Below are positions 6,383 through 46,643 of a stretch of 52,226 nucleotides of DNA, piece by piece. The translations under genes were made by a program, and so were the position numbers. This stretch comes from a virus. Lineage: Duplodnaviria > Caudoviricetes. Each line of letters begins with the position of its first letter. The first letter of the stretch is position 1. The notes below the pieces were generated by a model that saw only the letters and a list, made by a program, of their open reading frames with translations, was not told the DNA's origin and did not search any database. The DNA lies in the IMG/VR virus record IMGVR_UViG_3300028146_000004, positions 1-52,226 of that record; one strand, given 5' to 3'.

Positions 6383-6479
6383 GTCTAACCTACCGTCTAA
6401 CGCGCTTAGACTGTTATTAGACTCGATGAATGTGCTATCTACGCCGCTTTAGGTACAGAATCGTCTAACAAACGTCTAA
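6383..6479 (-). repeat. Six-box TTAGAC element A
   Basis: Boxes at 6383, 6395, 6406, 6417, then a 40-bp spacer, then 6463, 6474. Confidence 0.85.
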
Positions 6480-6572
6480 TTGAAAAACCACTGCTTACCC
6501 TTGAACACTGGCACTTTGAATTTTGCCTGCTTGCCATTCCAACGCCCGGGCAGGTAAAAGATCTTGAATCTA

Positions 6573-6581
6573 TGATATAAT
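6573..6581 (+). promoter_or_regulatory. Extended -10 promoter (TGATATAAT) for the first early operon; predicted start near 6588
   Basis: Matches the TGnTATAAT consensus; the first leader hairpin begins at 6588. Confidence 0.7.
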
Positions 6582-6587
6582 ATAGTT

Positions 6588-6741
6588 ATCAGCCAGTTAC
6601 AGTACACGGCTGATGCAGCGTCCATCAGCTACACGCGCGGACGTTCGTCCAACGGTAAACGATCCACGGGCTACGGCCCGACGGATGCTGTATCGGGGAG
6701 ACGGGAAGGTGTAGCTACGGGTTCTTGATAACTAAACAGTG
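6588..6741 (+). ncRNA. Structured leader RNA with a pseudoknot and an rrn boxA-like sequence
   Basis: Pairings 6612-6623/6683-6694 and 6627-6634/6709-6716; hairpins 6639-6650 and 6667-6680; GTTCTTGATAACTAAACAG at 6721. Confidence 0.6.
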
Positions 6742-6752
6742 AGAGTGTTACG

Positions 6753-7241
6753 TCGACGGGTGGCGTTGTGAGCCCCGGAGGTAAGGGTAGGTAGACATAA
6801 TCCGAACCTTACAGAAGGAGACCACAATGTCCGCTAAGATCAACATCGACGACGAGACCAAGGCCGCTTACCTCGAGCTCCTCGAGGGAGTGCTTACCGA
6901 GGACACGTACACCATTTACGGGCTTGCCAAGGTTGTTAACCTTGTGCTGGCAGCGAACGGAGCCGCTGCGATCCGCCCGCAGATGATGTACAACTACGCC
7001 CGCAACGGCTTGATCGTGAAGGGTGTGAAGATCTTCGGTGAGAACCTCCGGGACCTGACAAAGTCCGAGGTTGCCGAGTTCGTTATCCGGTACATCACGC
7101 GTGCAGGGTACGTCGTCAAGATCAGCGCGCCTGCAGCACAGGACGTCATTCCTGGGCTGGAGGACCTAACCGCCTAATTCACCAGTGAGGAGGTAGTACT
7201 GAGTTAGACTTACCTCCGGGGTTCACAAGGCCACCTGTCGA
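6753..7241 (+). repeat. 33-bp inverted repeat (6753-6785 / 7209-7241) enclosing ORF 6827..7177
   Basis: 30 Watson-Crick pairs, 2 G-U, 1 mismatch. Confidence 0.9.
6827..7177 (+). CDS. Putative HTH DNA-binding early protein
   Basis: AGGAG RBS; TIYGLAKVV...IRPQMMYNYARNGLI resembles a winged or MerR-type HTH. Confidence 0.65.
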   Translation: MSAKINIDDETKAAYLELLEGVLTEDTYTIYGLAKVVNLVLAANGAAAIRPQMMYNYARNGLIVKGVKIFGENLRDLTKSEVAEFVIRYITRAGYVVKISAPAAQDVIPGLEDLTA

Positions 7242-7244
7242 ACA

Positions 7245-7546
7245 CGATGTGATCGTCTTACATCGCCGGTGCCCGTAACGTCAACCGAAAGGAGCGAGGT
7301 TATGGACGCTAAGTGGACGAGGTACCTCGACGAGCAAGACTTGTGGAGGTTGCACAGTGAGACGTGCAACGATTGCACGGATCACCGAGACGAGGACGAC
7401 ATCTGGAGGATCGAGTTGACCGCGACGTGCCCAGTAGGGTGGGAAGCGATCGGTAAGATCCGCCAGATCGAGATCGAGTTGGGAATCGTACCTACTAACC
7501 GGTAAGTAACCCCCACGGGTACCGGCGGTGCAAGATGATCACATCG
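7245..7546 (+). repeat. 32-bp inverted repeat (7245-7276 / 7515-7546) enclosing ORF 7302..7505
   Basis: 28 Watson-Crick pairs, 3 G-U, 1 mismatch. Confidence 0.9.
7302..7505 (+). CDS. Small putative Zn-binding protein (HxxxCxxC...CxxGW)
   Basis: RBS before ATG 7302; motif shared with 7599..7805. Confidence 0.7.
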   Translation: MDAKWTRYLDEQDLWRLHSETCNDCTDHRDEDDIWRIELTATCPVGWEAIGKIRQIEIELGIVPTNR

Positions 7547-7549
7547 ACA

Positions 7550-7854
7550 GATCCGAGTCGTGCTAAGACCGGCTGGGCCAACCTGAAAGGAGACGGATAT
7601 GAATGGTTGGCGCGAGGTTAACCCACAAGACGAAGACCTGAATGAGGCCAGAAAGGCAATCCGGGACCTGATGCGTCACGTGCCTACGTGCGGCACCTGC
7701 CAAGCGTGGTCACAATATGACGCCGCGGTGTACACCCTGGCGTGCCTCGAAGGTTGGACGTTGTACCACATCGTGATCAACGGACAGTCCCCAGTCAAGT
7801 TCTAGTAGCGTAGGCTAACATCCAAGCCCAGCCGGTCCTAGGGTGACTCGGATC
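7550..7854 (+). repeat. 29-bp inverted repeat (7550-7578 / 7826-7854) enclosing ORF 7599..7805
   Basis: 25 Watson-Crick pairs, 2 G-U, 2 mismatches. Confidence 0.9.
7599..7805 (+). CDS. Small putative Zn-binding protein (HxxxCxxC...CxxGW)
   Basis: GAAAGGAG RBS; paralog-like to 7302..7505. Confidence 0.7.
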   Translation: MNGWREVNPQDEDLNEARKAIRDLMRHVPTCGTCQAWSQYDAAVYTLACLEGWTLYHIVINGQSPVKF

Positions 7855-7877
7855 ACCCCCGATGAAAGGAGGGTCCC

Positions 7878-8129
7878 ATGGCTAGGGAGATCTACCAGGT
7901 TCACCCGTTCACGGTGCGCCCACTGCTACGGCGTCACGCGAAGCGTGATGTCCAGTTCCAGATGGAACGCCTTGAGCGAGAGGGCCAGATCGAGCCGGTG
8001 TGCGTCAAGCCACCGGTGATGGGCCAGTACGAGATGGATGTAGACCATCCTGACTACTTCTACTGGTCCCCCGAGATCGTGGAGGCCGCGGTACGGCTAG
8101 GTTGGGAGACCATCCTGGTGACGTACTAA
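7878..8129 (+). CDS. Hypothetical protein
   Basis: GAAAGGAGG RBS; followed by a terminator. Confidence 0.7.
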   Translation: MAREIYQVHPFTVRPLLRRHAKRDVQFQMERLEREGQIEPVCVKPPVMGQYEMDVDHPDYFYWSPEIVEAAVRLGWETILVTY

Positions 8130-8134
8130 AAGAG

Positions 8135-8166
8135 AGCCCCCGGTGAAAGCCGGGGGCTTTTCTTTT
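8135..8166 (+). terminator. Intrinsic terminator
   Basis: AGCCCCCGG-TGAAAG-CCGGGGGCT followed by a T tract. Confidence 0.85.
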
Positions 8167-8700
8167 GCCCCCAAAGGGGTCCAAAATTCGGCGCAAACCT
8201 CGCTCCACGCCCCGCTCGGGCCATCGGATCTAAGGTGAAACGTCTTTATCCCCAAAGGGGGCCAAAAATAGGGCGGCGGGTCGCTCCACTCGGGCCTGGG
8301 CCATCGGGGCAGGGAGCGGTACGGCGGCGAAGGGGGTCCAGCGCCCGGGTCTGGCCCCAAGGGGGCCATTTTTAGGGCGGCACCTGCCTACACGGGGGCC
8401 ACGGGGCATCGGAGCCTAAATCCCACATGCCCATAGGGGTCAGATTGCGGGCCGCAGGGAGCGGGATTTAGGCTCAAAAGTACCGGCGAAGGGGCGGGTA
8501 TCTACCTCCCTATCTATCTCCCGGGAGATAGATATCCCCACCCTCCTTATAAAGCCTAAGTGTTACTGTGTATAGGCGACCACCTCCTCTCTCCTCTCAC
8601 TATATCCTTGTTAATAAACCTATTAGTATTTGGTTATAGATAAAACCAGGGGAGATAGATAGGGAGATATCAACGGGTCGTTTCAAAAGCACGGAACCGA
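8167..8700. other. Non-coding repeat region; candidate replication origin or genome-end region
   Basis: GC-rich degenerate repeats, a perfect 24-bp palindrome at 8511-8534, and a 17-bp inverted repeat (8506-8522/8650-8666) around an AT-rich tract. Confidence 0.5.
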
Positions 8701-8740
8701 GCGACCGGTTTAGACCGATAGATCCTAGAAAATCGACCCC

Positions 8741-8770
8741 TTGTGTTCCAAAGGGGACGTAGTATATAAT
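8741..8770 (+). promoter_or_regulatory. Early promoter TTGTGT-N18-TATAAT
   Basis: Member of the repeated promoter family. Confidence 0.65.
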
Positions 8771-8803
8771 AGAAATAGAGACCTTAGATCCCGGGAGGAA
8801 GAT

Positions 8804-9310
8804 ATGGGAGACTACGTGTTCCCACTGGTTAGCGATGACGACATTGCCCGAGCGGTAGACAGTGGGCCAAGAAGGCCGCTATCTACCTCCCTACCGGTAA
8901 CGCTACCGGGAGTAAGTAACGAGCCTTCCCTCCCTATCTCCCTATCTACCGGTAGGGAGGGAGGTAATGCCAAAACGTCCAACTCGACGGCCCCAAGTAT
9001 CGGCACAACGACGTCGAAGTATCCCTGGGCTGAATGGCTAGACGGGAAGGCGCACGTAATTGTGCGGGGAACCCACTACTCGGTACCAACTCGGAACATG
9101 GTAGTGCAGCTCCATAACAGGGGGCTGGCGCAGGTTGAGACCATGTACGTGTATACCGAAACGCTCGAGGGTACGGCTGGCATTTACTTCCAGTTCTACA
9201 AGACCAAGGAGGAGCGGGACGAACGTAGGGTGCAGACCAAGAACGAAGAGCGCCTTGCTCGAGAGCGGTATGCCAACGTACGAGCCGAGGACGGCAGGGT
9301 GGATGGCTAA
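8804..9310 (+). CDS. Hypothetical protein with a KYPWxxWLDG motif
   Basis: GGAGG RBS before ATG 8804. Confidence 0.65.
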   Translation: MGDYVFPLVSDDDIARAVDSGPRRPLSTSLPVTLPGVSNEPSLPISLSTGREGGNAKTSNSTAPSIGTTTSKYPWAEWLDGKAHVIVRGTHYSVPTRNMVVQLHNRGLAQVETMYVYTETLEGTAGIYFQFYKTKEERDERRVQTKNEERLARERYANVRAEDGRVDG

Positions 9311-9515
9311 GTATGATTGGGACCACTTGTGTTGTGGCGAGACCTTTACCCTGTATACCGGATTTGCAGACGATCCCAGTACGTACTTGGACTGTCACCC
9401 TAGAATGTTTGCCACCATACTAGGTCGGATGGCGAGACGAAGAGGGAAGGAGGTCGAACTTGAATTCCTGGGTACGGGAGACAGCGTAACAGGAATCAGG
9501 TTCCGGTGTGTATAA
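9303..9515 (+). CDS. Hypothetical protein (KYDW motif), probable paralog of the upstream gene's C-terminus
   Basis: Start overlaps the upstream stop; MAKYDWDHL...G. Confidence 0.6.
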   Translation: MAKYDWDHLCCGETFTLYTGFADDPSTYLDCHPRMFATILGRMARRRGKEVELEFLGTGDSVTGIRFRCV

Positions 9516-9548
9516 AAGTGCCCCCAAAGAGCCCCCCAGATTCGCTCC

Positions 9549-9579
9549 TTTTCCACCACATATGGGGCTGGGATATAAT
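9549..9579 (+). promoter_or_regulatory. Early promoter TTTTCC-N19-TATAAT
   Basis: AAAGAGCCCC motif upstream; -35 is weak. Confidence 0.5.
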
Positions 9580-9627
9580 TATTGTATCACCAACAAGGTG
9601 AGGCGATAACTACAGAGAGGCGAGTCG

Positions 9628-9882
9628 GTGGCTAAGAGAGTGGTTAGTCTCGAAGAGATCGAACACCAGATCGAACAGAGGCTAGGTCTCAGTTACACTG
9701 AGGCGATTCGTATGACGAGTATGATGCGACCCTCGTACATGCGAACCAAGCTCGGTAAGCGTCCGGTGGGGAAGAACATTGATGCGGTACTCAAGCGTTC
9801 TCCCGGGTCTAGTACACACAGTGGATTAGACTTCGTCAAGGCAGTATATGCCGAGCGCACTGGTCAGGAGCCGCTGTACTAG
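9628..9882 (+). CDS. Hypothetical protein
   Basis: GAGG RBS; downstream hairpin at 9883-9917. Confidence 0.6.
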   Translation: MAKRVVSLEEIEHQIEQRLGLSYTEAIRMTSMMRPSYMRTKLGKRPVGKNIDAVLKRSPGSSTHSGLDFVKAVYAERTGQEPLY

Positions 9883-9995
9883 AGGCGAGGGGGAGCGAAA
9901 GCTCCCCTTCACCGCCTTTGTAGGTTGCGCACACCTTACAACTTCACACTCTACCTTCGGATCGCGGGGGTTCGACAAGTAGAGAGGAGCCAGTA

Positions 9996-10232
9996 ATGGC
10001 CGCTAAGTTCCACCCACGGGCGATGGCGCAGTTGATCGCGACCATCGTTACGAACCCAGAAGCTCCGGATTACGAAGCGCAGGTCGAGAGGCGGATCGAG
10101 CAAGTAACGGAGTTGGCAGTGGAGTACTACAAGGTGTACCCGATCGAACACAACTGGACCGTGGAGCGAAAGGGTCACACACGGAACAGCCTCAACAACC
10201 GCGCACTACTGTCGAGAGCCAACCTCAGGTAG
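9996..10232 (+). CDS. Hypothetical protein
   Basis: GAGGAG RBS. Confidence 0.65.
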   Translation: MAAKFHPRAMAQLIATIVTNPEAPDYEAQVERRIEQVTELAVEYYKVYPIEHNWTVERKGHTRNSLNNRALLSRANLR

Positions 10233-10327
10233 TGACGCCGCCCCGCAAGGTTTCATCGCCCTGTGGGGTTCTGAAAGTAGCAGGTGCGCTGAACGGGGCT
10301 CTTGAAAGAGCCCGTGTGTCAAGACTC

Positions 10328-10358
10328 TTGCAGACCCCATATGGTGCTGGGGTATAAT
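10328..10358 (+). promoter_or_regulatory. Early promoter TTGCAG-N19-TATAAT
   Basis: Repeated promoter family. Confidence 0.7.
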
Positions 10359-10405
10359 TGAAGTAGAAGCAGGAAGTACTCACAACTACAGAGAGGATCG
10401 AACCC

Positions 10406-10624
10406 ATGAGGATCGAACTTCGAGACGAGGTCGACGTTCACACGATCTGGTTCGCACTCGAGAAGTACTCAGAGGTGCTACTCAAGGATCGTGAGTCGAA
10501 GTACAACGGGGATCCGCGGTACGGCGACGAGGACGAAGAGTTTCTGACGGGAGAGATCGAACAGTGTGGAAACGTGCTCAATCAGCTACGGGAGCAGGGA
10601 TTCGCACCGTTCAAGGGTGAGTGA
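10406..10624 (+). CDS. Small acidic hypothetical protein
   Basis: GAGG RBS, first gene after the promoter. Confidence 0.7.
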   Translation: MRIELRDEVDVHTIWFALEKYSEVLLKDRESKYNGDPRYGDEDEEFLTGEIEQCGNVLNQLREQGFAPFKGE

Positions 10625-10629
10625 CTCAC

Positions 10630-10676
10630 GGAGCCGCCTAGTAGTCGTAGGTATCCTTCAATGGAACGGCTCCACG
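10630..10676 (+). ncRNA. Three-way-junction RNA J1
   Basis: GGAGCCG/CGGCTCC, CCTA/TAGG, TCC-TTCAAT-GGA, then ACG. Confidence 0.7.
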
Positions 10677-10689
10677 AAAGGAGGCTGAC

Positions 10690-10980
10690 ATGATTGTCAT
10701 CCGAAAGTACGAGGTGTCCATCGAGGAGTCGGTGCTCAAGGCTATCGCCGAGGGTACGGTCCCGAACACCACTTCGATCGATCTGTACGACGCCTGCACG
10801 AGGCTGATCGATCTGGGTAACGCCAGTCGACCGCTCTACCTGGTGCAGTTCGACGGCGTCAAGGACCCGCGGTCCACAGCCATCGGCTGGGACTACGAGT
10901 ACGTAGAAGGCGTCGACGAGATGTTGTACGGGCCGATCACGTGGAAGGGTGAGGAGACCGACATCGACCTCGAGAAGTAG
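10690..10980 (+). CDS. Hypothetical protein
   Basis: GAAAGGAGG RBS. Confidence 0.7.
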   Translation: MIVIRKYEVSIEESVLKAIAEGTVPNTTSIDLYDACTRLIDLGNASRPLYLVQFDGVKDPRSTAIGWDYEYVEGVDEMLYGPITWKGEETDIDLEK

Positions 10981-10988
10981 GCCTCGTA

Positions 10989-11035
10989 CGGGGCGGCCAG
11001 GATATTGCTGGTAGGGTTCAATCCCACCGCTCCAC
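10989..11035 (+). ncRNA. Three-way-junction RNA J2
   Basis: GGGCGG/CCGCTC, CCAG/CTGG, GGG-TTCAAT-CCC, then ACG; stems covary with J1. Confidence 0.7.
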
Positions 11036-11050
11036 GAAAGGAGGCGAGTC

Positions 11051-11251
11051 ATGATAGACTTGTCGAAGTACTCGGAGCCAGGCGAGTGTGGATACTGTGA
11101 GAAGCCGGCCGTACTCAACGCGGTAGCTCTCCAGGTATGCCAGGACGAGCACGGTGAGGAGCATACCTTCACCGAGGCCGTCTGCGAGGAGTGTCGTGGC
11201 GAGCTCGAACGCGATACGGGCCTCGGCGGCATGTTCATCCTGCACTGGTGA
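11051..11251 (+). CDS. Small Zn-finger protein (CxxC...CxxC)
   Basis: GAAAGGAGG RBS; CGYC and CEEC. Confidence 0.7.
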   Translation: MIDLSKYSEPGECGYCEKPAVLNAVALQVCQDEHGEEHTFTEAVCEECRGELERDTGLGGMFILHW

Positions 11252-11256
11252 CGAGA

Positions 11257-11303
11257 GGGTCCGCCGGGTTGTTGACGGTATCCTTCGATGGAACGGGCCC
11301 GCA
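11257..11303 (+). ncRNA. Three-way-junction RNA J3
   Basis: GGGTCCG/CGGGCCC, CCG/CGG, TCC-TTCGAT-GGA; 44-nt core as in J1 and J2. Confidence 0.65.
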
Positions 11304-11336
11304 AAAGAGCCCCAAAGAGCACCCGGTTCAAGACTC

Positions 11337-11366
11337 TTGTAGTCGAAGAGGGTGCTCGAGTATAAT
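11337..11366 (+). promoter_or_regulatory. Early promoter TTGTAG-N18-TATAAT
   Basis: Repeated promoter family. Confidence 0.7.
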
Positions 11367-11389
11367 TAGTAGTAGAGAGGAGGTCAACG

Positions 11390-11593
11390 ATGAAGATCGT
11401 GACCATGTGCATAGCGCACGGAGTAGCACTCGAGGGCGAGCCGATGCTGGTTCGTCCGCCAGCCGCGGTGGAACTGAAGGACAACGACGCGAGTTCCTGG
11501 GAGGTAGACACTTCCGAGCAGGTGTGTCCGACAGCCGCCAACAACGGACTGTACTGGTGCAACGCAACGTGGGCTGTGTGCGTCGTTCAGTAG
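11390..11593 (+). CDS. Hypothetical protein
   Basis: AGGAGG RBS; C-x2-H...C...C pattern similar to 12229..12447. Confidence 0.65.
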   Translation: MKIVTMCIAHGVALEGEPMLVRPPAAVELKDNDASSWEVDTSEQVCPTAANNGLYWCNATWAVCVVQ

Positions 11594-11647
11594 AACGACC
11601 GCCTGTAGTGGTGTCAGAGCCACTACAGGTACGGAAGGAGGTACACC

Positions 11648-11863
11648 ATGATCGACGTGGTGGTTGTAGTCTCTGTTCCTGCAACAGAGAAGCTCGAGCC
11701 GGGTTCGGGAGCGCTCCTCAGTCGCGACCGGATGGTGGAGGACGAACCTGCCTACACTCAGGTGTTCCGGTTCGAGTTCGAGGACGATCGGGCGCTGCAA
11801 GCTTCGTTGGCGTGGCTGGGCAACCAGGCAGTCAGCGGAGGGCCGATGATCAACACCGCGTGA
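11648..11863 (+). CDS. Hypothetical protein
   Basis: AAGGAGG RBS. Confidence 0.65.
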   Translation: MIDVVVVVSVPATEKLEPGSGALLSRDRMVEDEPAYTQVFRFEFEDDRALQASLAWLGNQAVSGGPMINTA

Positions 11864-12048
11864 AGCCCCGCAAGCTTCTCGTGTCAGGCCACGAGGGGTG
11901 CAAGCTCGAGTACACAAACACCTCAATAGAGACCGGAGCGCGCTGCTACTGGTGCCCATTCCACAACGAGTGGGTCTTCGTGTTTCCGGTCGCTAAGGTG
12001 TATCACTACTACGACGGGACAGTAACAGTGTTCCAAATGCCTGGGTAG
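11860..12048 (+). CDS. Small Cys/His-containing hypothetical protein
   Basis: GTGA overlap with the upstream stop; the 3' end of track ORF 11191..12048. Confidence 0.55.
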   Translation: MKPRKLLVSGHEGCKLEYTNTSIETGARCYWCPFHNEWVFVFPVAKVYHYYDGTVTVFQMPG

Positions 12049-12228
12049 TGAGGCCTCGAAGGCCGTCGAAAGCCTTCGAGGCGCTTGACCGTTGAAGGAA
12101 CGAACATCTTAGGGCCCCCTAAGAAGAAACGGTCAGTAAGGAGGGTCTCGTGAGGCGTACTCTTGTCTTTGCGTGGAGTGGGCCAAAGGAGTGCGAGGAG
12201 ACCAGGAAGTTGCTAGAGGAGGTAGAAC

Positions 12229-12447
12229 GTGAAGAGGGTACGAGTGGTGGCTCAGTGCGCGCAACACCCCGACTCCGTAGTGTACCTACGAGACGGAGCG
12301 ATGACACTGATCGGGGAGGACAACACGTGGACTCACGAAGGTAGCCAGATGGCTGTCATGGTCGAGTTCGATGCTGGCTTCCTCGAGTGTTCCGAGAACT
12401 ACGCCGACCACGAGCTCTCGTTCCACGTCTCTGAACTCCGACAGTAA
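12229..12447 (+). CDS. Hypothetical protein
   Basis: GAGGAGG RBS. Confidence 0.65.
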   Translation: MKRVRVVAQCAQHPDSVVYLRDGAMTLIGEDNTWTHEGSQMAVMVEFDAGFLECSENYADHELSFHVSELRQ

Positions 12448-12531
12448 CCTGCTGAGTCGTTGACAGGCGCAAGTCTGTCAGCGGCTCTGTGGGTTGCTAA
12501 GAGTAGGCGACCCTCAGGCAAGGAGGGTACC

Positions 12532-12918
12532 ATGTCGAATGAGTTCTACCTGACTGCACCGTGCGTCGGTAAGCGTAGCTGCGGTGCGCGGGTCGGGGAG
12601 AAGTGCGTCGACAAGCGTGGAAACGTTCTGCCGCCGTCGCAGTCACACAAGGCGCGGAAGGACGAGTACGAGCACCGCCAGGCCGCCGAGAGCGCAACGG
12701 CAACGTTGCAGTCGCTCGAGCCGGTCGTCGACGAGGAGAGGGCTCGCAAGGTCTTCTACGAGGAGCGGCGACAGGGGAAGATCGCGAACGTTCTCTTCGC
12801 GATCCGATTCGGCCGGGAGGTCATGCACATGCCTCAGGCGCAGCTCGACCAGCGACTGGCCGAGATGATGGTCGACGGTGGCTACGACAGGGCCCTCGAC
12901 CGCCTGCAGCCAGAGTAG
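12532..12918 (+). CDS. Phage zinc-finger protein
   Basis: AGGAGG RBS; C...CGA-VGE-C...H-AR motif. Confidence 0.7.
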   Translation: MSNEFYLTAPCVGKRSCGARVGEKCVDKRGNVLPPSQSHKARKDEYEHRQAAESATATLQSLEPVVDEERARKVFYEERRQGKIANVLFAIRFGREVMHMPQAQLDQRLAEMMVDGGYDRALDRLQPE

Positions 12919-12924
12919 TACAGA

Positions 12925-12969
12925 GGGTTGGTCGGCATAGGCCGTACGCAGCAAAGCAGCCAACCCGCG
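12925..12969 (+). ncRNA. Three-way-junction RNA J4
   Basis: GGGTTGGT/GCCAACCC, CGGC/GCCG, TAC, GC/GC, A, then GCG. Confidence 0.55.
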
Positions 12970-12983
12970 AAAGGAGGTACGAG

Positions 12984-13292
12984 ATGTCACTCGCACCTGG
13001 AAAGGGAGCACACCTGGTGCTCAACGAGGCAGTCATGAGCTGGCTCTCTGCGGCGCTCTCGGACGTGCGATCCGTCTACACGGACGAGCTACACGACGAG
13101 ACACCGGAGAAGGTCATCACGGGGCTGCTGGCGGAGGGCGGTAGGTCGTTGCCGTGGGCGTCGGAGAAGGACACCTTCGGCAACAAGGCGTACACGAGCA
13201 TGGTGTACAAGGAGGGTGAGCTGCGGGTGACCGTAGTTCACAACAAGCGGGGCCTCAGCCTCGACATCCGCGAGTGGTTCCAGCCCAGCTGA
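12984..13292 (+). CDS. Protein with a C-terminal PC4-like ssDNA-binding motif
   Basis: GAAAGGAGG RBS; ends ELRVTVV...GLSLDIREWF. Confidence 0.55.
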   Translation: MSLAPGKGAHLVLNEAVMSWLSAALSDVRSVYTDELHDETPEKVITGLLAEGGRSLPWASEKDTFGNKAYTSMVYKEGELRVTVVHNKRGLSLDIREWFQPS

Positions 13293-13348
13293 GCACGTTG
13301 GCACATCTTCGGGGGAGGTGTGCCTCCGTGTCTAGCTTAGGAGGAGCA

Positions 13349-13594
13349 ATGGCAAGCAATGAGGAGGCCTGGTACAAGTTCGCGATCCTGGCTGGGAACG
13401 AGGTGAGAATCGTCGAGGACCTAAACGACGACATCGCCGGCCACGTCCAGAAAGCGTTCCAGAAGTACGGCAACAGTCAGCTCCCGATGGTGAAGCTGGA
13501 AGGTGACCATGCCTTCACGTCGGCGATCTCTGACCGAAACCGGCACATCCAGATGGCGATCATGTACTCCAACATGGCCATCATGTACAAGTGA
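13349..13594 (+). CDS. Hypothetical protein
   Basis: AGGAGGAG RBS. Confidence 0.7.
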   Translation: MASNEEAWYKFAILAGNEVRIVEDLNDDIAGHVQKAFQKYGNSQLPMVKLEGDHAFTSAISDRNRHIQMAIMYSNMAIMYK

Positions 13595-13609
13595 CACCAA
13601 AGGGCCCCC

Positions 13610-13640
13610 TTGTAGTCCAAAGGGGGCACCGGGTGATAAT
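13610..13640 (+). promoter_or_regulatory. Early promoter TTGTAG-N19-GATAAT
   Basis: Repeated promoter family. Confidence 0.6.
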
Positions 13641-13662
13641 GGGATAGAAGGGAGGTAATGCA

Positions 13663-13824
13663 ATGCACCGAGTCGAAGATAGGGTCGGCATCATGGAGAT
13701 GTGGAAGACTCCTTGGCGCAAGAGGTTCTTCCGTCGTGCGAAGCACCGCTACAGCATGTGGCAGGCTACGTGGGATATACTAGTCAACGTTGGTATATCC
13801 GGGTATACAGCACCAGTACTGTAG
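13663..13824 (+). CDS. 53-aa basic hypothetical protein
   Basis: Below the ORF-track cutoff; GGAGGT RBS; MHRVEDRVG...TAPVL. Confidence 0.55.
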   Translation: MHRVEDRVGIMEMWKTPWRKRFFRRAKHRYSMWQATWDILVNVGISGYTAPVL

Positions 13825-13884
13825 CAATCCCCACAGGGCGGCGACAAAGAGGTGGCGCATTATCAACGATCCCTAACTAAATAC

Positions 13885-13951
13885 GTCCCGGTAGCACTGG
13901 CAGTGCGCGGTTGGAAGATACCGAGCGAGGGTTCGATTCCCTACCGGGGCA
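13885..13951 (+). ncRNA. tRNA-like element T1 with an aberrant anticodon arm
   Basis: GTCCCGG/CCGGGGC acceptor, GCAC-TGGCA-GTGC D arm, TTCGATT T loop; 4-bp stem with an 8-nt loop. Confidence 0.7.
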
Positions 13952-13978
13952 CGGAAAGAAATGCACCAAAGAGCCCCC

Positions 13979-14009
13979 TTGCAGTCGAGGTTTGGGGCTC
14001 CTGTATAAT
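13979..14009 (+). promoter_or_regulatory. Early promoter TTGCAG-N19-TATAAT
   Basis: Repeated promoter family. Confidence 0.7.
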
Positions 14010-14207
14010 TGAAGTAGAGCGAGAGGTATGGCTAAGGAGGTGGTAGCCATGCGGGCGATCAATAAAGCGCCCTGGCGGTAACAAGCCTCAATCGTTTCGT
14101 GTCACCTGTACCACCTTACAATTGAATCGTGGCCAAGTATCGGCAGAGACATTCCGGGGGAGCCCACGTTATGAGCGTGCGGACGGGATGTGGTGCTTGG
14201 CCACCTA

Positions 14208-14283
14208 GGGGATGTAGCTCATGGAGAGCACTACCGGTAATCGCCGCCGCTTTAGTTCGCAGGTTCGATCCCTGCCATCCCCA
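14208..14283 (+). ncRNA. tRNA-like element T2
   Basis: GGGGATG/CATCCCC, TA-GCTC-ATGGA-GAGC, GCAGG-TTCGATC-CCTGC; anticodon arm replaced by a 25-nt irregular stem. Confidence 0.75.
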
Positions 14284-14314
14284 CGTAAAGTCCATCCGTC
14301 AGGAGGGAACAGCA

Positions 14315-14686
14315 ATGAAGGTAGTACAGTACGACACGGTCCGAATCGTACGCGAGTGGGTCCCGGTCGAGGACATCGAAGATGGTGTGACGCCGGAGCT
14401 CCACGTGCGTACGGTTGTCGAGCAGACGGACGAGGAGCGGTGGATATCCATCATCGACCACGTCGCGGACCACGCGCCCGACTCGCTCGTCACGACCGTC
14501 GTCGTGTACGACGATGAAGGCAAGGCCATCGTCCAGGGCTCCGTCAAGAGCACTCCGGGGCAGATCCGGGCAGAGATGTTCACCGACGCTTCACTCGTGC
14601 CGAACGTGAAGGACGGCGAGCTGTCCTTCACGGATCCGACCGAGGAGACCGTCGGGCAGTACGCGCTTCGGGTGACCGGGGCGTAG
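14315..14686 (+). CDS. Acidic hypothetical protein between tRNA-like elements
   Basis: AGGAGG RBS before ATG 14315. Confidence 0.7.
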   Translation: MKVVQYDTVRIVREWVPVEDIEDGVTPELHVRTVVEQTDEERWISIIDHVADHAPDSLVTTVVVYDDEGKAIVQGSVKSTPGQIRAEMFTDASLVPNVKDGELSFTDPTEETVGQYALRVTGA

Positions 14687-14694
14687 GCATCACA

Positions 14695-14770
14695 GCGCTA
14701 GGCCGCCGTTAGGCGGACGCCCTGCCAACCTGGGTGATTGGAAGTGCGGGTTCGAATCCCGTCTAGCGCG
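14695..14770 (+). ncRNA. tRNA-like element T3 (Gly-GCC-like loop remnant)
   Basis: GCGCTAG/CTAGCGC, GCGGG-TTCGAAT-CCCGT; 9-nt loop TGCCAACCT. Confidence 0.7.
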
Positions 14771-14824
14771 CGTACGACAACTTAACACCGCAGCCTGGTG
14801 CATGACTCCACCATCGAGGCTGCA

Positions 14825-14905
14825 GGCTCTAGTGCTCCCGATAGGGTTGCCGCCTTTCTTAGCGGGGTACAACGGAAGTGTAGGTTCGAATCCTACCTAG
14901 AGCCG
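14825..14905 (+). ncRNA. tRNA-like element T4
   Basis: GGCTCTAG/CTAGAGCC (8 bp), GTAGG-TTCGAAT-CCTAC; CCGC-CTTTCTTA-GCGG with an 8-nt loop. Confidence 0.7.
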
Positions 14906-14956
14906 CGTACAGGGGGTCCCTCCGAAAGAGCCCCCGAAAATCTTCAATGAGCCCCC

Positions 14957-14987
14957 TTGCAGTCCAAGCTGCGGGGTGTGGTATAAT
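14957..14987 (+). promoter_or_regulatory. Early promoter TTGCAG-N19-TATAAT
   Basis: Repeated promoter family. Confidence 0.7.
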
Positions 14988-15030
14988 TGAAGTAAGCAAG
15001 CAGCAGCGTCAACCAAACTAGGAGGGTATC

Positions 15031-15558
15031 ATGACGCAGGCAACGACCACCCCCGATTTCGAGGATGCCGCCCAGACCGAGGCTCCGACCACGGACGCTC
15101 TGGACCTCGAGGTCAACGACGACGCCAACCTGGACGTCGACGTCCCCAGCGCAGAGGACGGCGACGTGCTCCCCACGGAGGGCGAGGGAACCAAGGCGGA
15201 GTCGGCGCCGGCGAAGGCCGCGCGTCCGAAGGCTCCCGAGGGCTTCGTGAAGCCCGTCGAGTTCGCCAAGCTCCTGTCGGAACACCTGAAGAAGGTCGTT
15301 CCGCCGCAGGTCGTCTACTCGTACATCAAGAACAACCAGGGCGAGTCGGCGAAGAACCCGTTCCCGGTCCACGCGCAGGACGGGTACGACTGGTACATCA
15401 AGCCGGAGGAGGGTCTGGCGTGGTGGGACGCGAAGAACTCGCGTGTCGCCGCTGGCAAGACCGCTCGGGCCGAGAAGGCGGCGAAGGCCGCTGCCAAGGC
15501 GACCGAGGCTCCGACGGTGGAGGCTGAGTCCGCCGCGCCTGTGGAGGAAGCCGAGTAG
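15031..15558 (+). CDS. Putative DNA-binding protein: acidic N-terminus, central HTH-like domain, Ala/Lys-rich tail
   Basis: AGGAGG RBS; KPVEFAKLL...PPQVVYSYIKN resembles 6827..7177. Confidence 0.7.
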   Translation: MTQATTTPDFEDAAQTEAPTTDALDLEVNDDANLDVDVPSAEDGDVLPTEGEGTKAESAPAKAARPKAPEGFVKPVEFAKLLSEHLKKVVPPQVVYSYIKNNQGESAKNPFPVHAQDGYDWYIKPEEGLAWWDAKNSRVAAGKTARAEKAAKAAAKATEAPTVEAESAAPVEEAE

Positions 15559-15575
15559 CAGTCGGGGTTCGAGCA

Positions 15576-15621
15576 GGGCAGGTCCCGAAAGGGGTACGCC
15601 GTCGTAGGCAGCCTGTCCACG
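15576..15621 (+). ncRNA. Three-way-junction RNA J5
   Basis: GGGCAGGT/GCCTGTCC, CCC-GAAA-GGG, TAC, GCC/GGC, A, then ACG. Confidence 0.6.
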
Positions 15622-15740
15622 AGCACAGGCAAGTAGAGTGAACGAGGCCGTCACTGGCGATGCCGATGGGCGGATAGTAACGATGCTTGCCTGTGCCCCT
15701 GTTCAAGAGCAAACTTCGCTACACGAGTCAGGAGTAGGCA

Positions 15741-37884: not shown

Positions 37885-37886
37885 CC

Positions 37887-38978
37887 TCAGACATCTGGAT
37901 CACCTTCAAAGACTAGGTCCGCTTCCTCCGTGTTGTCAGACGCCTGCGGCGTGAGGCTCCACTTCAAGAGCCGCTTGTAGCCGGAGAAACCATTGCCAGG
38001 CCAACGCGGATCCTTGATGACAACTCGACAAGTGTCACCAAGATTGTAGCTTCCGAACTCTGGAGTCAGGTTGCCTTTGACGGTAACCTTAATCACAGCA
38101 ATCGGAGGCCGCTTGATCTGTGATTGCTGCCGTGCAATTCCTTGAATCTGCGTAAGGTCGTCGAGGTCCTTACGAGACACTACTTGGTCATAGCGGGGGA
38201 AGCCTCCAGCCACAAGGTCAGTAGCGACAACCTCCGACACGAGCATGTCAGAGCCCTCACCGTTACCCATGACGAAGACGTTAGTACCTGCATCCGACAT
38301 GTACTCGGTCAAGTAGTACTGGGTGATGTTTCCTGGGTACTCAAACACATTCATGCCAGGCGACTGACCAACACCCAGTGTAGGATACCCTATGACCAGG
38401 TTCTTCTGGTAGTAGGTACCGGTCTTGGATACGCCAATGTACCAGTCGAATCCATCCACAGCGTCAGCGAGTCCTGACATGATGCCGTCGTAGTACTTGA
38501 AGTCGGTCGCGAGGACCGAAACATTCTTGGGCACCACCGTCGTGAATGCTCCAGGCACGATGACGTTGACGTTACTGTTGCCTGTATCAGACTGCATCTG
38601 AGTCCACAGCGAGGAGAAGATGTTACGCTGCTCCACTGCTGTGAACGTCGTGTCTTGACGAATGAGACGCTGCTTCGGGTACTGTTCGAAGCTAAGCGCA
38701 AACAACTGGACGGACTTGGACTGAGCTGAGTAGACACGGCTCCAGATGAATCCGTGCCAGATAGCAATCCCGTTACGCTCGACTGCAATCCAACAGCGCC
38801 CTGGTATGGACGCTGCAAGTAGGTCGGAGTTTTGCATACCGGTTTGGTCCAACTGGAACGTACCTTGCCACTGCCCGCCCTTGTTCATCTGCATGTCCAT
38901 GGTAACGCCGTAGCAAGCAATCTCTGCGAGTTGCTGCTCGCCGCCCATGGTGCCAAAGACGTAGCGGTAGTCGGTCAT
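37887..38978 (-). CDS. Minor tail protein (ReqiPepy6 gp37-like baseplate hub)
   Basis: W-G-IW-R, GNGEG and LGD---V-I-D-RW motifs. Confidence 0.75.
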   Translation of the reverse strand: MTDYRYVFGTMGGEQQLAEIACYGVTMDMQMNKGGQWQGTFQLDQTGMQNSDLLAASIPGRCWIAVERNGIAIWHGFIWSRVYSAQSKSVQLFALSFEQYPKQRLIRQDTTFTAVEQRNIFSSLWTQMQSDTGNSNVNVIVPGAFTTVVPKNVSVLATDFKYYDGIMSGLADAVDGFDWYIGVSKTGTYYQKNLVIGYPTLGVGQSPGMNVFEYPGNITQYYLTEYMSDAGTNVFVMGNGEGSDMLVSEVVATDLVAGGFPRYDQVVSRKDLDDLTQIQGIARQQSQIKRPPIAVIKVTVKGNLTPEFGSYNLGDTCRVVIKDPRWPGNGFSGYKRLLKWSLTPQASDNTEEADLVFEGDPDV

Positions 38979-39943
38979 GAGGTCTCAGTCGCCGCCGGCG
39001 TAGCAGGTCCAGACGTACCACTTCCTGAGCCCGTCACAGAGACGCTCACACTGTGCGTGTGGGCTACGAGCCCACCAGCCGGCGGCGTGAGCGCGGCGAT
39101 CATCGCCTTGATCTCGTCGAGTGCGACGAGCGCCTTGTCAGCTTTCTCGTTCGCGTTGTGCGCCGCTTCCCACGCGAAGGCTAGGGCGGTGTCGCGCTGC
39201 TGGCCAACGAAGCCCGCGTTGCCCTGCGTCAGTGCCCACGTGTTCGCGCCCGGTGAGGCGGCCCATTCCTCGGTACCCATGTCTCCTCCTAGTGCTGTCT
39301 TGAGATCGTCGAGCGAGCCCCGGAAGGCGTTCGCGTCGCTTGTTGTCTGTCCTGCGATCGTTGTGTTCGACCCGTACTGCAGGAAGAACACCGACTTGCT
39401 AACTGATGGCGACCATCGTGAGGACTGATCACCAGGGTAGACGCTCGGGTAGTGGCCCGAAGGATTGCTGCCGTAGTCCGATTGCCACCATCCGACTTCT
39501 TGTCCTGACAACGCAGCTCCATACACCCACTTTGGAGAATATCCAAAGCTTCGTGGCAAAGGGATCTTTCCCCCAGAAAGATCCGCCACGCGGTGGTGGA
39601 ACTCATTGATCTGGGCAATCGACGGAACCGTCTGGCCGCTGTAGAACGGTTCGTTGTCCGACTGACAGATGAAGTACGGGAAGTCTCGCCACCAAGGAAT
39701 GCGGGCATCCATCATCTGGATGTACCACGCTGCTTGGTTCCCGATCGACCGGTTGCCCCAGAGGACGTGGTACGTTCCGAGGATCTCACAGCCGAAGCCC
39801 TTCATTGCATTGAGCTTAGCTGCGGCTGTGGGATTCTCGTAGTAGTGGTCGCCGTCCGTGATCTTGCACGTGAAGAACGACAGGCCGTCGAGACTCGCTG
39901 GAGTGTCGTCGTGTGACGACGTATCCCATCCGAAGACCGTCAT
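38975..39943 (-). CDS. Endolysin, GH25-like muramidase
   Basis: GWDTS-H, KITDG, GTYH, D-E, LQY-S and DAN-F-GS. Confidence 0.8.
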   Translation of the reverse strand: MTVFGWDTSSHDDTPASLDGLSFFTCKITDGDHYYENPTAAAKLNAMKGFGCEILGTYHVLWGNRSIGNQAAWYIQMMDARIPWWRDFPYFICQSDNEPFYSGQTVPSIAQINEFHHRVADLSGGKIPLPRSFGYSPKWVYGAALSGQEVGWWQSDYGSNPSGHYPSVYPGDQSSRWSPSVSKSVFFLQYGSNTTIAGQTTSDANAFRGSLDDLKTALGGDMGTEEWAASPGANTWALTQGNAGFVGQQRDTALAFAWEAAHNANEKADKALVALDEIKAMIAALTPPAGGLVAHTHSVSVSVTGSGSGTSGPATPAATETS

Positions 39944-45569: not shown

Positions 45570-45577
45570 GTCTGCTC

Positions 45578-45817
45578 CTAGCTTACCTTGTTCTTAGACC
45601 GTTCAAGCTCCGCCTTCCTCTGATCCGCTAGGAGGACCTGCTCGAGCAAGTATACGAAGTACGCATCTTGATCACGTAGTCCACCTGCTTGTGGAAGACA
45701 CCCCGTAGCTAGACAAAGTCTGACTAGGCTGAGTACCTCTTGCACTTCCAGATCCATCGGCCGACTCATTACTATGGCTGTGTGGATCCGAAAGGTCAGA
45801 GGTGGAATTATTTTCCC
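45578..45817 (-). CDS. Tail assembly chaperone, -1 frameshift extension
   Basis: Slippery GGGAAAA at 45811-45817; the -1 frame is open into ORF 45578..45769 (LP--GG--DQ motif). Confidence 0.8.
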   Translation of the reverse strand, partial: GKIIPPLTFRIHTAIVMSRPMDLEVQEVLSLVRLCLATGCLPQAGGLRDQDAYFVYLLEQVLLADQRKAELERSKNKVS

Positions 45818-46236
45818 TTAGCATCTACCCCTGGAGACTCTTTGGACTGCTTCTCGAAGTCGTTCATCTCGCCGATGAGCGTCGTGATCTCCTGGCCGAC
45901 GCGCGGGTCGAGCTGACGGATGTGTTCGACGTTCTGGAAGTTGAGCTTGTTACCATGCTCGTCCTCCAGGTTGTGATCCATGACGCACTTCTGGATCTCG
46001 AGAATGTTCGCTGCCTCGGAGACCATGGCGATCTCCGCGTCGACGTTGCCGACGGCTTCGGTAGCAAACTTCATCTTCATCGCCTCGGAGTCCTTGGCCA
46101 TCTTCTCGCCATAAGACATCCGACGGAGTTCGATCCAACCTTCCTCGGATGCCGGCGTTGTGTCCGTGGCATCCGCAGCAGGCAGCGTCGTGAGACTGCG
46201 ACGCTCTGTGAGCTTTGAAACTGTTGCCCTTGGCAT
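45808..46236 (-). CDS. Tail assembly chaperone
   Basis: GGAGG RBS before ATG 46236; between major tail and tape measure genes. Confidence 0.8.
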   Translation of the reverse strand: MPRATVSKLTERRSLTTLPAADATDTTPASEEGWIELRRMSYGEKMAKDSEAMKMKFATEAVGNVDAEIAMVSEAANILEIQKCVMDHNLEDEHGNKLNFQNVEHIRQLDPRVGQEITTLIGEMNDFEKQSKESPGVDAKGK

Positions 46237-46318
46237 TTTCACCCTCCAGTATATACGAGTAACACGCGGTCCTGCCTTTAGCAGATCCCACAGGGCCGCA
46301 ACATTCCATTTCCGGATC

Positions 46319-46360
46319 GAGGTGAGGATCGCCTGCGCCATGTCTGACGATCCTCACCTC
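46319..46360. terminator. Strong hairpin (terminator or processing site)
   Basis: 13-bp perfect stem GAGGTGAGGATCG/CGATCCTCACCTC. Confidence 0.55.
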
Positions 46361-46366
46361 TCCCCT

Positions 46367-46537
46367 TTACTCGTCCGAGGCGGGCGCCGAGTCGGACGAG
46401 CTCTCCTCCACCGCGGCCTCCCCAGGCTCCGTGTGAAGGGCTTCCTCGAGGGCCTCGGTGCCCGGGTCCTCGGCGGCTTCCACGTTCGCGGTCTCAGTAG
46501 CTTCTTCGGCCGCCATACTCTCTTCGTGCTCGCCCAT
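46367..46537 (-). CDS. 56-aa extremely acidic peptide
   Basis: Below the ORF-track cutoff; AAGGAGG RBS; 19 D/E and no K/R. Confidence 0.6.
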   Translation of the reverse strand: MGEHEESMAAEEATETANVEAAEDPGTEALEEALHTEPGEAAVEESSSDSAPASDE

Positions 46538-46547
46538 ACTAGCCTCC

Positions 46548-46643
46548 TTAGACTTGAGTTAGACGTTCCTGCTTGGCTTTGTACTGAGGTTGCACATTCC
46601 TTTTGTCTCTATGTAGTCTAACCGAGTTAGACGTTGTTTAGAC
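46548..46643 (+). repeat. Six-box TTAGAC element D
   Basis: Boxes at 46548, 46559, then a 40-bp spacer, then 46605, 46616, 46627, 46638. Confidence 0.85.

Follow-up and report, generated by a model that had tools for sequence, protein, structure and literature searches.

Polar six-box arrays at the four gene-block borders of an uncultured soil siphophage: candidate transcription-control elements

The window, i.e., the whole stretch of 52,226 nucleotides that was analysed, is the complete circular genome of an uncultured soil phage (52,099 bp, with a terminal duplication of 127 bp); a search of sequencing runs listed 24 soil DNA runs and no RNA run. The phage looks lytic according to its gene content and belongs to a clade of uncultured soil siphophages, for which megablast of 25 kb against the phage collection reports no close cultured relatives, and the polymerase has only matches below 35% identity. 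Its genes form four blocks (early, replication/7-deazaguanine, head, and tail-lysis), the borders of which are marked by four elements, A-D. The head/packaging module begins at 6226 and the tail-lysis module at 46537, both running leftward, while the early module runs rightward from 6827; the stop codon of the tail tube gene is at 46664. The B-C block, to which an earlier interpretation of this DNA made from its letters alone (the sequence-only reading) had assigned structural genes, holds replication and 7-deazaguanine genes instead, and the phage encodes its own primase-helicase. Some gene labels of the sequence-only reading are wrong; protease, portal, and TerL are located as follows.

3-848, minus strand: protease
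922-2523, minus strand: portal
2638-4116, minus strand: TerL

The four elements are located as follows, with bit scores from a sequence-only model of 22 elements.

6383-6479, minus strand: element A, six boxes and a spacer of 40 nt, flanked by the beginning of the head/packaging module and by the early module (58.5 bits, E 3.7e-16, itself a training sequence)
18118-18213, plus strand: element B, from the stop codon of the zinc-ribbon gene 17792-18118 to 12 nt before the ribosome-binding site of 18234-18713
35081-35176, minus strand: element C, flanked by the end of the replication/modification module and by small genes running rightward, 35232-36263 (72.1 bits)
46548-46643, plus strand: element D, between the tail tube gene stop (46664) and the tail-lysis module (66.9 bits)

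Exactly these four loci, with the positions and strands given in the sequence-only reading, are matched by a six-box regular expression (box-N4-6-box, 36-44 nt, xob-N4-6-xob-N4-6-box-N4-6-box), which has no match in 300 simulated Markov-1 genomes. The paired-box pattern with at most two mismatches occurs 8 times compared with a shuffle mean of 2.27, and 0 of 100 shuffles reach 8. The TTAGAC hexamer is not enriched genome-wide (22 copies versus 16.6 expected), and 16 of its 22 genomic copies are clustered in the 385 bp that the elements occupy. Beyond the four elements, the 22-element model matches only reverse-strand echoes of B and C in the window at E<=1. The layout described earlier is retained, with a spacer of exactly 40 nt in A, B, C, and D and boxes phased at 11 bp (one step of 12 bp in A). 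The boxes, however, are not all TTAGAC as had been claimed: the exact hexamer is found in 16 of the 24 (2/6 in element B and 3/6 in element C), the remaining ones are GTAGAC, CTAGAC, or AGAGAC, and the AGAC core is present in 24/24.

Start-to-start distances on the circle, previously given as about 11.7, 17.0, 11.5, and 11.9 kb, are recomputed as 11,735, 16,963, 11,467, and 11,934 bp; going round the circle, the elements are spaced fairly evenly and alternate in orientation. All elements are intergenic, in agreement with the gene-boundary location proposed before, except that C overlaps the final 10 nt of the unconserved ORF 34719-35090. Their GC content is 41-47% versus 57.6% for the genome. 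The elements are polar, with an additional box pair and a GAAT motif on one side: in A the GAAT-bearing side is directed toward the early region and in C toward genes 35232-36263, and B has no GAAT motif. In D the outermost box is directly followed by a ribosome-binding site and ATG. As for the gene after B, 18234-18713 is the first gene of the replication module and is not recognisable as TerS, the role once suggested for it. An RNA element was also considered and rejected: across both strands of the four copies the fold z-scores range from +0.51 to -2.54, and box-box pairing is the only common structure.

Eight syntenic relatives with protein identity of 30-85% carry box arrays at the same four borders, in 35 of the 35 positions present on their contigs, and the gene order between the elements is identical in all relatives. 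Scanning relatives with a motif model, a check proposed by the sequence-only reading, finds the box phasing conserved: core (AGAC), phasing (11 bp), spacer length (39-41 bp), and polarity are kept while linkers and flanks drift, and in this respect the elements do look like the phased multi-protomer sites that were postulated. The box sequence is unchanged across phages whose proteins share 30-50% identity. Spacer length in the alignment of 22 type-I elements is 40 nt (14 elements), 39 nt (5), or 41 nt (3); the second downstream box has TCT in 21/22 and a leading G in 19/22, and the linkers carry 0.1-0.6 bits. Such a pattern (boxes kept, linkers variable, no common fold) would be the one expected of protein sites rather than of RNA. 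The spacers of A and B, as well as those of C and D, resemble each other in this genome as noted earlier, but this likeness is not kept in the relatives as judged by eye, and the B spacer of G001 carries a motif seen here in C and D.

Beyond the common plan, G007 (a type-II relative) and G014 have one extra element each. G008 and G009, the branch with variant boxes, keep an array at the B position, and G009 also has an array-like cluster near the C position; lower-GC relatives carry quite different boxes. At tail-tube loci, a box array lies within 190 nt after the tube gene in at least 9 of 51. This set includes 62 of 80 loci (L060-L120, L122), those whose match covers only the N-terminal part being left out; merging identical stretches gives 51 rows, 3 of which have <120 nt of downstream sequence. 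The count is a lower bound because the array of G001 lies after an inserted ORF. Relatives without array D (L067, L104, and L111) have a hairpin and a TATAAT-type promoter at that site, and a ribosome-binding site with a start codon directly after the outer box, as in D, is also present in L060, L114, and L068. In bacteria the three-box pattern has 17 scattered matches in unrelated taxa among 185,579 species genomes (596 Gb), which is not above chance given a rough expectation of ~70 under uniform base composition. The full-text literature search shows no relevant account of the element by title or abstract among the matches listed, and on the basis of this search and the lack of named relatives we regard the element as undescribed.

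Inside the spacer, GAAT occupies positions 6-9 in 17 of the 22 type-I elements and TA occupies positions 22-23 in 15 of the 22. GAAT is thus followed after 12 nt by a TA-starting hexamer, mostly without the final T, a gap shorter than a normal -35/-10 pair requires. The TA steps are situated 21 nt from each inner box in a symmetric core; because TA is equally frequent from either side (15 of 22 each way), the spacer centre may serve as a site of bending instead of as a -10 element. No element contains a sigma-70 consensus promoter (TTGACA-like and TATAAT-like hexamers 16-18 nt apart), and consensus promoter and terminator scans remain at chance level. Exact TATAAT is found on the plus strand in 9/9 cases, within the early and replication blocks, with 0 copies on the strand that encodes head and tail. 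According to domain searches the genome encodes no sigma factor.

In 6 type-I genomes, 23/23 elements turn their GAAT side toward the interior of the A-B or C-D segment, which extends to relatives the earlier description of inverted pairs bracketing the early and tail-lysis regions. When each element is compared with the module that it precedes, A and B have one polarity and C and D the reverse one (23/23), so that not all of them can be simple sense promoters built alike. With GAAT taken as the mark of direction, transcription from B would run antisense into the early genes; under the reverse assumption, C and D would be the antisense ones. A plain promoter model does not account for this conserved polarity rule. 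In G007, 5/5 elements face their downstream gene alike.

The protein that would bind the boxes is likely to be found among four early proteins that are conserved; the genes of two of these stand immediately ahead of B.

17319-17795, plus strand: candidate binder 1, 158 aa, pI 9.3, winged helix-turn-helix with a 34-residue C-terminal helix
17792-18118, plus strand: candidate binder or co-factor 2, 108-aa zinc-ribbon protein, pI 8.4, four invariant Cys (CX2C...CX4C)
15031-15558, plus strand: candidate binder 3, acidic N-terminus, Xis/Cox/HTH_17-like core, invariant P-Q-x-x-Y, Lys/Ala-rich tail
6827-7177, plus strand: candidate binder 4, 116-aa paralogue of the 15031-15558 core with a PQMMYNY-type motif, first early gene beside A

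The sequence-only reading had named the products at 6827, 15031, and 17319; the latter two are indeed among the conserved early DNA-binding-like proteins, and the first is a paralogue of 15031. The early proteins scanned have no Pfam, NCBIfam, or PHROG match and fall into no known regulator family, and a profile search of three candidate families against PDB sequences reports nothing below E 0.07. Invariant residues are present in those parts of the candidates that are predicted to serve in recognition.

17319-17795 is kept in all box-bearing relatives. The best Foldseek match of its predicted model (pLDDT 86.4) is the Rep-DNA complex 5kbj (5kbj_H; E 2.7e-3, TM 0.37-0.44); Rep domains 5kbj, 4pql, and 4pt7 have E from 2.7e-3 to 1.3e-2, with MarR, CooA, and TubR at similar rank. 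The start of 17792-18118 overlaps the stop codon of this gene, and its own stop codon touches box 1 of B, which is also the case in G004 and G006; in G001 the distance is at most 10 nt. For its model (pLDDT 81.5) the best Foldseek E is 0.29, and the best VIA-wide Z of 4.1 (NrdR zinc ribbon) is below the meaningful level. 15031-15558 has 167 relatives at E<=1e-3; its nearest named Atlas clusters are MerR_1, HTH_17, Exc, and Phage_Cox, with values of 0.81-0.86 that are below the evidence level of the tool and serve as leads only. In the array-poor G008 and G009 all three conserved early proteins are present; the zinc-ribbon gene is represented there by diverged homologues with one Cys pair changed, which were read from DNA after tblastn had suggested absence. 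G011 and G013 have the zinc-ribbon gene and no arrays. The phylogenetic profile therefore singles out no binder.

Taken together, the chances seem about even that each element is a transcription-control array at a module border, namely a candidate regulator-binding array clamping a weak promoter-like core. Its symmetric core consists of two (G)TTAGAC boxes 11 bp apart, the 39-41-bp spacer, and two boxes of opposite orientation, with polarity given by a further box pair and GAAT on one side. Several copies of one conserved early phage protein would occupy the boxes on one helix face; the binder may be 17319-17795, possibly together with 17792-18118, or the Xis/Cox-like pair of 15031-15558 and 6827-7177. 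Binding would clamp a spacer with a weak, putatively activator-dependent promoter-like core (GAAT, 12 nt, TA-starting hexamer), activating or repressing transcription. In this way the phage could turn on or shut down the blocks for replication, head, tail, and lysis once the early genes have run.

This regulator-array reading is favoured because the arrays are found at four borders in this genome and in eight relatives, because the box conservation fits protein sites, and because TATAAT is absent on the late strand whereas array-less relatives hold hairpin-plus-TATAAT promoters at the D site. The GAAT and TA signals of the spacer, the start codons after the outer box, and the G007 elements facing their downstream genes also argue for it, as do the lack of encoded machinery for the rival explanations and the repeats of Ltr, RinA, and ArpU, which by analogy may be comparable in lying distal to their own gene. 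Packaging, staged injection, and inversion of the genome had been suggested earlier; the module-border position points to transcription control instead.

The same arrays could serve as architectural anchors, at which multi-protomer complexes pair A with B and C with D, or fold each element as a hairpin, creating four loops or insulated domains with transcription affected only secondarily. Alternating orientation at roughly even spacing and the inward GAAT of all 23 type-I elements would suit such a role, as would a symmetric core with TA steps placed for a sharp bend and the weak resemblance of the 17319-17795 fold to centromere-binding TubR and iteron-handcuffing Rep. The convergent-pair rule, however, is not general, since the five elements of G007 face their own downstream genes and G007 and G014 have an extra element; moreover, no SMC-, ParB-, or ParA-like partner is encoded, the A-B and C-D spacer likeness is lost in relatives (by eye), and we know of no precedent for chromosome-domain anchors in a 52-kb lytic phage. 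Anchoring is unlikely, and a variant with CTCF-like insulator logic, in which A-B and C-D are bridged or folded by a winged-helix/zinc-ribbon complex as polar boundary elements and the four insulated transcription and topology domains are switched as units, is quite improbable. It is also unlikely that the regulatory job is the same and the reader is a host protein, e.g., a response regulator of the OmpR/PhoB type, which would tie module expression to host physiology. An 11-bp direct-repeat geometry, as seen in the boxes, is typical of winged-helix response regulators, and the box sequence has stayed constant while the phage proteins diverged to 30-50% identity. In contrast, the chance-level frequency of the three-box pattern in 596 Gb of bacterial genomes (17 versus ~70), the invariant residues in the recognition parts predicted for the phage candidates, and the different boxes of lower-GC relatives fit phage-specific readers better.

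Replication origins, with 17319-17795 as a RepA_N-like initiator, the boxes as iterons, and the spacer as the unwinding region, appear very unlikely. The best Foldseek matches of this protein are iteron-bound N-terminal domains of plasmid Rep proteins, B separates its gene from the replication module and is the array that G008 and G009 have kept, and the elements are lower in GC than the genome. However, iterons are 17-22 bp long and occupy a single locus beside an AT-rich unwinding element, while the boxes here are 6-7 bp, four dispersed copies are kept at head, tail, and lysis borders, and there is neither a DnaA-box-like nor a markedly AT-rich stretch. The match in fold is weak, MarR-type regulators score alike, and no PDB chain matches by sequence; phage primase-helicases usually pick the origin, and this phage has its own. 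Least probable of all, and in our opinion hardly credible, are the parS-like centromeres or res/hix-like recombination sites that the sequence-only reading had in mind. A parS site is a palindrome of roughly 16 bp, whereas the boxes of 6-7 bp form direct and inverted pairs 11 bp apart. As the sequence-only reading itself noted, no ParB or recombinase is recognised: six-frame searches give 0 matches for ParB_N (PF02195, E<=0.1; 11/14 control genomes positive), the ParA-type ATPase AAA_31 (PF13614 as the one ParA family searched; controls 14/14), and serine and tyrosine recombinases (PF00239 and PF00589; controls 13 and 14 of 14). With no ParB, ParA, integrase, or resolvase, membership in the parS and res classes fails, and the gene content looks lytic. 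As for inversion, 4 independent soil runs provide contigs that are colinear across B (X1 record 1, X21 record 17) and across C (X1 record 1, X10 record 16), in line with the constant gene order of the relatives, and 0 of the 7 joints listed lie at an element or change strand, although contigs drop rare forms. What speaks for such sites is the presence of phased multi-site arrays in inverted pairs and the dispersed centromere sites described for the linear prophage N15 (PMC3235114).

If the regulator-array reading is true, a whole clade of soil siphophages would time its expression through one reusable cis-module at every border, with a fixed grammar of box pairs, 40-bp core, and polarity, and with regulators of no known family. 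The few phage late-gene switches that are understood would then be joined by a novel promoter/operator syntax and by as many as three additional families of DNA-binding proteins, and the modules could provide compact, orthogonal control parts.

Several known systems share parts of this design. The late activators Ogr of P2, Delta of P4, and C/Mor of Mu act at four late promoters each through a shared upstream site, a single dyad at about -55 in the Ogr/Mor type, and Ogr binds zinc. The small zinc-ribbon gene (CX2C...CX4C) is reminiscent of Ogr, but six-frame searches give 0 matches each for Ogr_Delta (PF04606) and Mor (PF08765), and the elements are phased multi-box arrays on both sides of a core. 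Xis, P2 Cox, and 186 Apl are small winged-helix proteins that polymerise on direct repeats about one helical turn apart and also regulate transcription. Phased repeats are likewise present here, and the clusters nearest to 15031-15558 include Phage_Cox, as a lead only; however, integrase and attachment functions are absent, and box sequence and layout differ. In T4 middle promoters the MotA box is centred near -30, ~12 bp before the -10 element, which is similar to GAAT (17/22) and the TA-starting hexamer (15/22) 12 nt later. Unlike those promoters, the TA signal is symmetric, the final T is mostly absent, and family scans recognise no MotA or AsiA relative. Stoperators of mycobacteriophage L5 and C1 operators of P1 are dispersed single sites bound by the immunity repressors of temperate phages. 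Together with the N15 centromeres as described in PMC3235114, they share with the present elements a short asymmetric site that is reused around a phage genome and whose orientation matters; in contrast to these single sites bound by a repressor or SopB, the arrays are compound, with six boxes, and the genome has no repressor, integrase, or ParB.

The closest functional analogue would probably be the repeat sites of Ltr/RinA-type late activators. According to the account in PMC3753634, Ltr-type activators of Gram-positive phages (RinA, ArpU, LtrC) are small and basic, and act through 7-nt direct repeats located immediately distal to their own gene and upstream of the late operon; activation depends on the repeats, which show specificity for the cognate protein. 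In contrast to the sites described there, with one copy before terS, the elements occur in four copies at four borders and have six boxes in both orientations, a fixed 40-bp spacer, and a conserved polarity; the adjacent proteins match no regulator family, and 17319-17795 is modelled as a winged helix rather than a sigma-region-4-like domain. As in the Ltr systems of that account, B begins right at the stop codon that ends the last early genes, whose products are small and basic, and A is situated between the early genes and the packaging/head module.

The six-box feature is real, strongly conserved and built to a defined grammar within a clade of uncultured phages. In the window, direct reading of all four copies (elements A to D) bears out the layout described in the sequence-only reading, and a six-box regular expression finds exactly these intervals, with no match in 300 Markov-1 simulated genomes:

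6383-6479, minus strand: element A, where the head block and the early block diverge
18118-18213, plus strand: element B, between the stop that closes the early genes and the first replication gene
35081-35176, minus strand: element C, downstream of the replication block
46548-46643, plus strand: element D, between the tail tube stop and the first tail-block gene

The paired-box pattern occurs 8 times, compared with a mean of 2.3 in shuffles. As for the hexamer itself, TTAGAC shows no excess over chance in the window, and 16 of its 22 copies lie within the elements' 385 bp. Exact TTAGAC accounts for 16 of the 24 boxes, B and C employing GTAGAC, CTAGAC or AGAGAC, and AGAC is retained in all 24; the spacer is 40 nt long. 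Around the circle the elements are 11.7, 17.0, 11.5, and 11.9 kb apart, as given before. The outermost box of D is directly followed by a ribosome-binding site and ATG, likewise in three loci of relatives (L060, L114, and L068).

The window is a complete IMG/VR virus record whose first 127 bases recur at its end, and the genome is thus either circular, at 52,099 bp, or linear and permuted. Near-identical DNA is present in 24 soil metagenome runs; megablast against a phage collection and a polymerase search found no close cultured relative. Four gene blocks were delimited by family scans:

6827-18118, rightward: early block, small genes of no known family
18234-35090, rightward: replication and 7-deazaguanine block (SNF2 helicase, PD-(D/E)XK nuclease, AAA_24, DUF669, primase-helicase, QueC, radical-SAM enzyme, FolE, and a family A polymerase with UDG-like N-terminus)
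6226 across the record ends to 46664, leftward: head and packaging block (large terminase, Mu-like portal, Mu gpI-like protease, tail tube protein)
46537 to 36351, leftward: tail-lysis block (tape measure, Dit-like protein, minor tail proteins, endolysin-like protein), abutting a short rightward gene set at 35232-36263

QueC, the radical-SAM enzyme, and FolE (26880-27677, 28623-29375, and 29788-30513, with the polymerase at 31557-33971) point to 7-deazaguanine DNA modification. Every box contains G then A, a potential site of such modification.

Scanning IMG/VR with a three-box pattern yielded 14 loci, mostly with the full layout on 42-55-kb contigs, and 15 related records (G001-G015) were retrieved for comparison. 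In eight of them (G001-G007 and G014) the genes are ordered as in the window, with proteins 30-85% identical, and arrays occupy the four corresponding syntenic sites (35 of the 35 present on contigs); G007 and G014 have one additional array each. Type I elements (window, G001, G002, G004, G005, and G006) have four boxes, a spacer opening with a GAAT-containing motif, and two boxes; type II elements (G003, G007, and G014) have four boxes in one uninterrupted block, ~52 nt of spacer, and two boxes. Alignment of 22 type-I elements shows an almost invariant AGAC core and phasing and information-poor linkers, and the spacer measures 40 nt in 14, 39 nt in 5, and 41 nt in 3. A sequence-only model trained on these 22 recovers the untrained A element of G001 (31.9 bits, E 7e-8), matches type II more weakly, and finds no fifth copy in the window. 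It has no match in type-II G007, in G008, or in the distant G010-G013 and G015. The array at the B position is retained in G008 and G009, and in G009 a single array-like cluster is also present close to position C. At the D position G008 has a hairpin and then a TTGCTT-18-TATAAT promoter, as do several closer relatives. In most type-I elements the side with four boxes is flanked, 4-10 nt outside its last box, by a GCTAGC-like palindrome (for example 46650-46657, 35060-35068, and 6350-6366 in the window). In lower-GC relatives, early regions contain clusters of ATGTCCG / GATATA-type boxes by the dozen rather than TTAGAC arrays:

G010, 1-6700 (locus L157)
G011, 35965-39846 (locus L161)
G013, 62331-62721 (locus L169)

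As to polarity, if the GAAT side counts as the front, the window elements orient A(+), B(-), C(+), and D(-), so that A and B both face the early block and C and D both face the segment between them. Comparison of element and gene strands gives the same rule in 23 of 23 type-I elements; therefore the bracketing of the early and tail-lysis regions by inverted pairs, noticed earlier from the window, is a conserved rule. In contrast, all 5 elements of G007 are oriented toward their own downstream gene.

Three early proteins are kept in all box-bearing genomes, namely the products of 17319-17795, 17792-18118, and 15031-15558 with its paralogue 6827-7177, and none of these candidate readers matches Pfam, PHROGs, or NCBIfam. 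The first is basic (pI 9.3), and its predicted fold (pLDDT 86) is a winged helix-turn-helix with a long helix after it. The best fold matches of this model, all weak, are MarR regulators, TubR, and the N-terminal domains of plasmid Rep proteins on iterons. The gene for the second overlaps the preceding stop at its start and meets box 1 of B at its end; its product has four invariant cysteines and is modelled as a zinc ribbon and a helix, with no meaningful match in fold searches. The third and its paralogue have an invariant P-Q-x-x-Y motif in common, and the nearest named Atlas clusters of 15031-15558 (MerR, HTH_17, Exc, and Cox) are leads only. Presence and absence across the related genomes single out no candidate. 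Three inverted repeats follow one another in the early block, with arms of 29-33 nt that are 86-91% complementary, and each encloses a single small early ORF:

6753-6785/7209-7241, around ORF 6827-7177
7245-7276/7515-7546, around ORF 7269-7505
7550-7578/7826-7854, around ORF 7599-7805

Also within the early block, at 10621-11307, 12044-12073, 14208-14284, and 14740-14903, are recurrent pieces resembling tRNA T-arms (families D3 and D11) and one odd ARAGORN tRNA call with a four-base anticodon.

The explanation we prefer, at about even confidence, is that the array at each border between modules binds a regulator and thereby clamps a weak core resembling a promoter. That the elements are instead parS or res sites, as the sequence-only reading proposed, now seems very improbable, since six-frame searches of the genome returned no ParB_N, AAA_31, integrase, or resolvase; soil-run contigs span B and C colinearly, and none of the contig joints listed falls at an element, although rare forms could escape contigs. 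Sigma region 2, Ogr/Delta, and Mor also gave nothing in six-frame searches. Architectural domain anchors and host-factor sites are equally unlikely readings, and iteron origins are decidedly improbable. An RNA element was rejected, no structure being common to the four copies.

Within the spacer, 17 of 22 elements have GAAT at positions 6-9, and 15 of 22 have a TA-initial hexamer at positions 22-27. Numbering from the opposite inner box again gives 15 of 22 for the hexamer, which makes the core quasi-symmetric around its midpoint. Consensus scans found no sigma-70 promoter or terminator within the elements. Exact TATAAT occurs nine times in the genome (eight in the early block), never on the head and tail gene strand, each time with a CTTG(C/T)AG-like motif ~19 nt upstream within a GC-rich hairpin; these units resemble early promoters of the host type joined to hairpins. 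Beyond A by ~95 nt, on the head-gene side, lies a conserved TACTGAGATA-(T/G)AGT-GAATTG block, possibly a head-block promoter or leader element. Throughout the clade a CCCTGTGGG / CCCACAGGG mini-hairpin recurs, in one orientation or the other, beside the starts of modules, frequently with an array on one side and the next gene on the other.

6576, 8765, 9574, 10353, 11361, 14004, 14982, 17086, and 21324, plus strand: exact TATAAT hexamers
6281-6300, minus strand: TACTGAGATA block, likewise at the matching place in G001, G002, and G006
35190-35205: mini-hairpin, also in G001-G007 and at loci L061, L067, L069, L070, and L082

Two putative transcription maps are compatible with the data under the clamped-core explanation, and we lean slightly toward the first. 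Here GAAT would set the direction of transcription, a choice suggested by the uniformity of the type-II layout. C would be the sense promoter of the short rightward set and D that of the tail-lysis block, A would contribute regulated transcription toward the early genes, and B would transcribe antisense into the regulators' own genes and could shut them off. Replication genes would be served by read-through from the TATAAT promoters, and the head block by the separate motif beyond A. In the second map the direction is reversed: A would be the sense promoter of the head block and B of the replication block, with read-through across D reaching the tail and across C the short rightward set.

The closest functional precedent is the Ltr/RinA/ArpU late activators, which have 7-nt direct repeats immediately distal to their own gene (PMC3753634); family membership, however, fails on the protein side. 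Phage regulatory repeat arrays are already known as a kind, and what is new here is the layout, its four-fold use at module borders, the conserved polarity, and the likely candidate readers.
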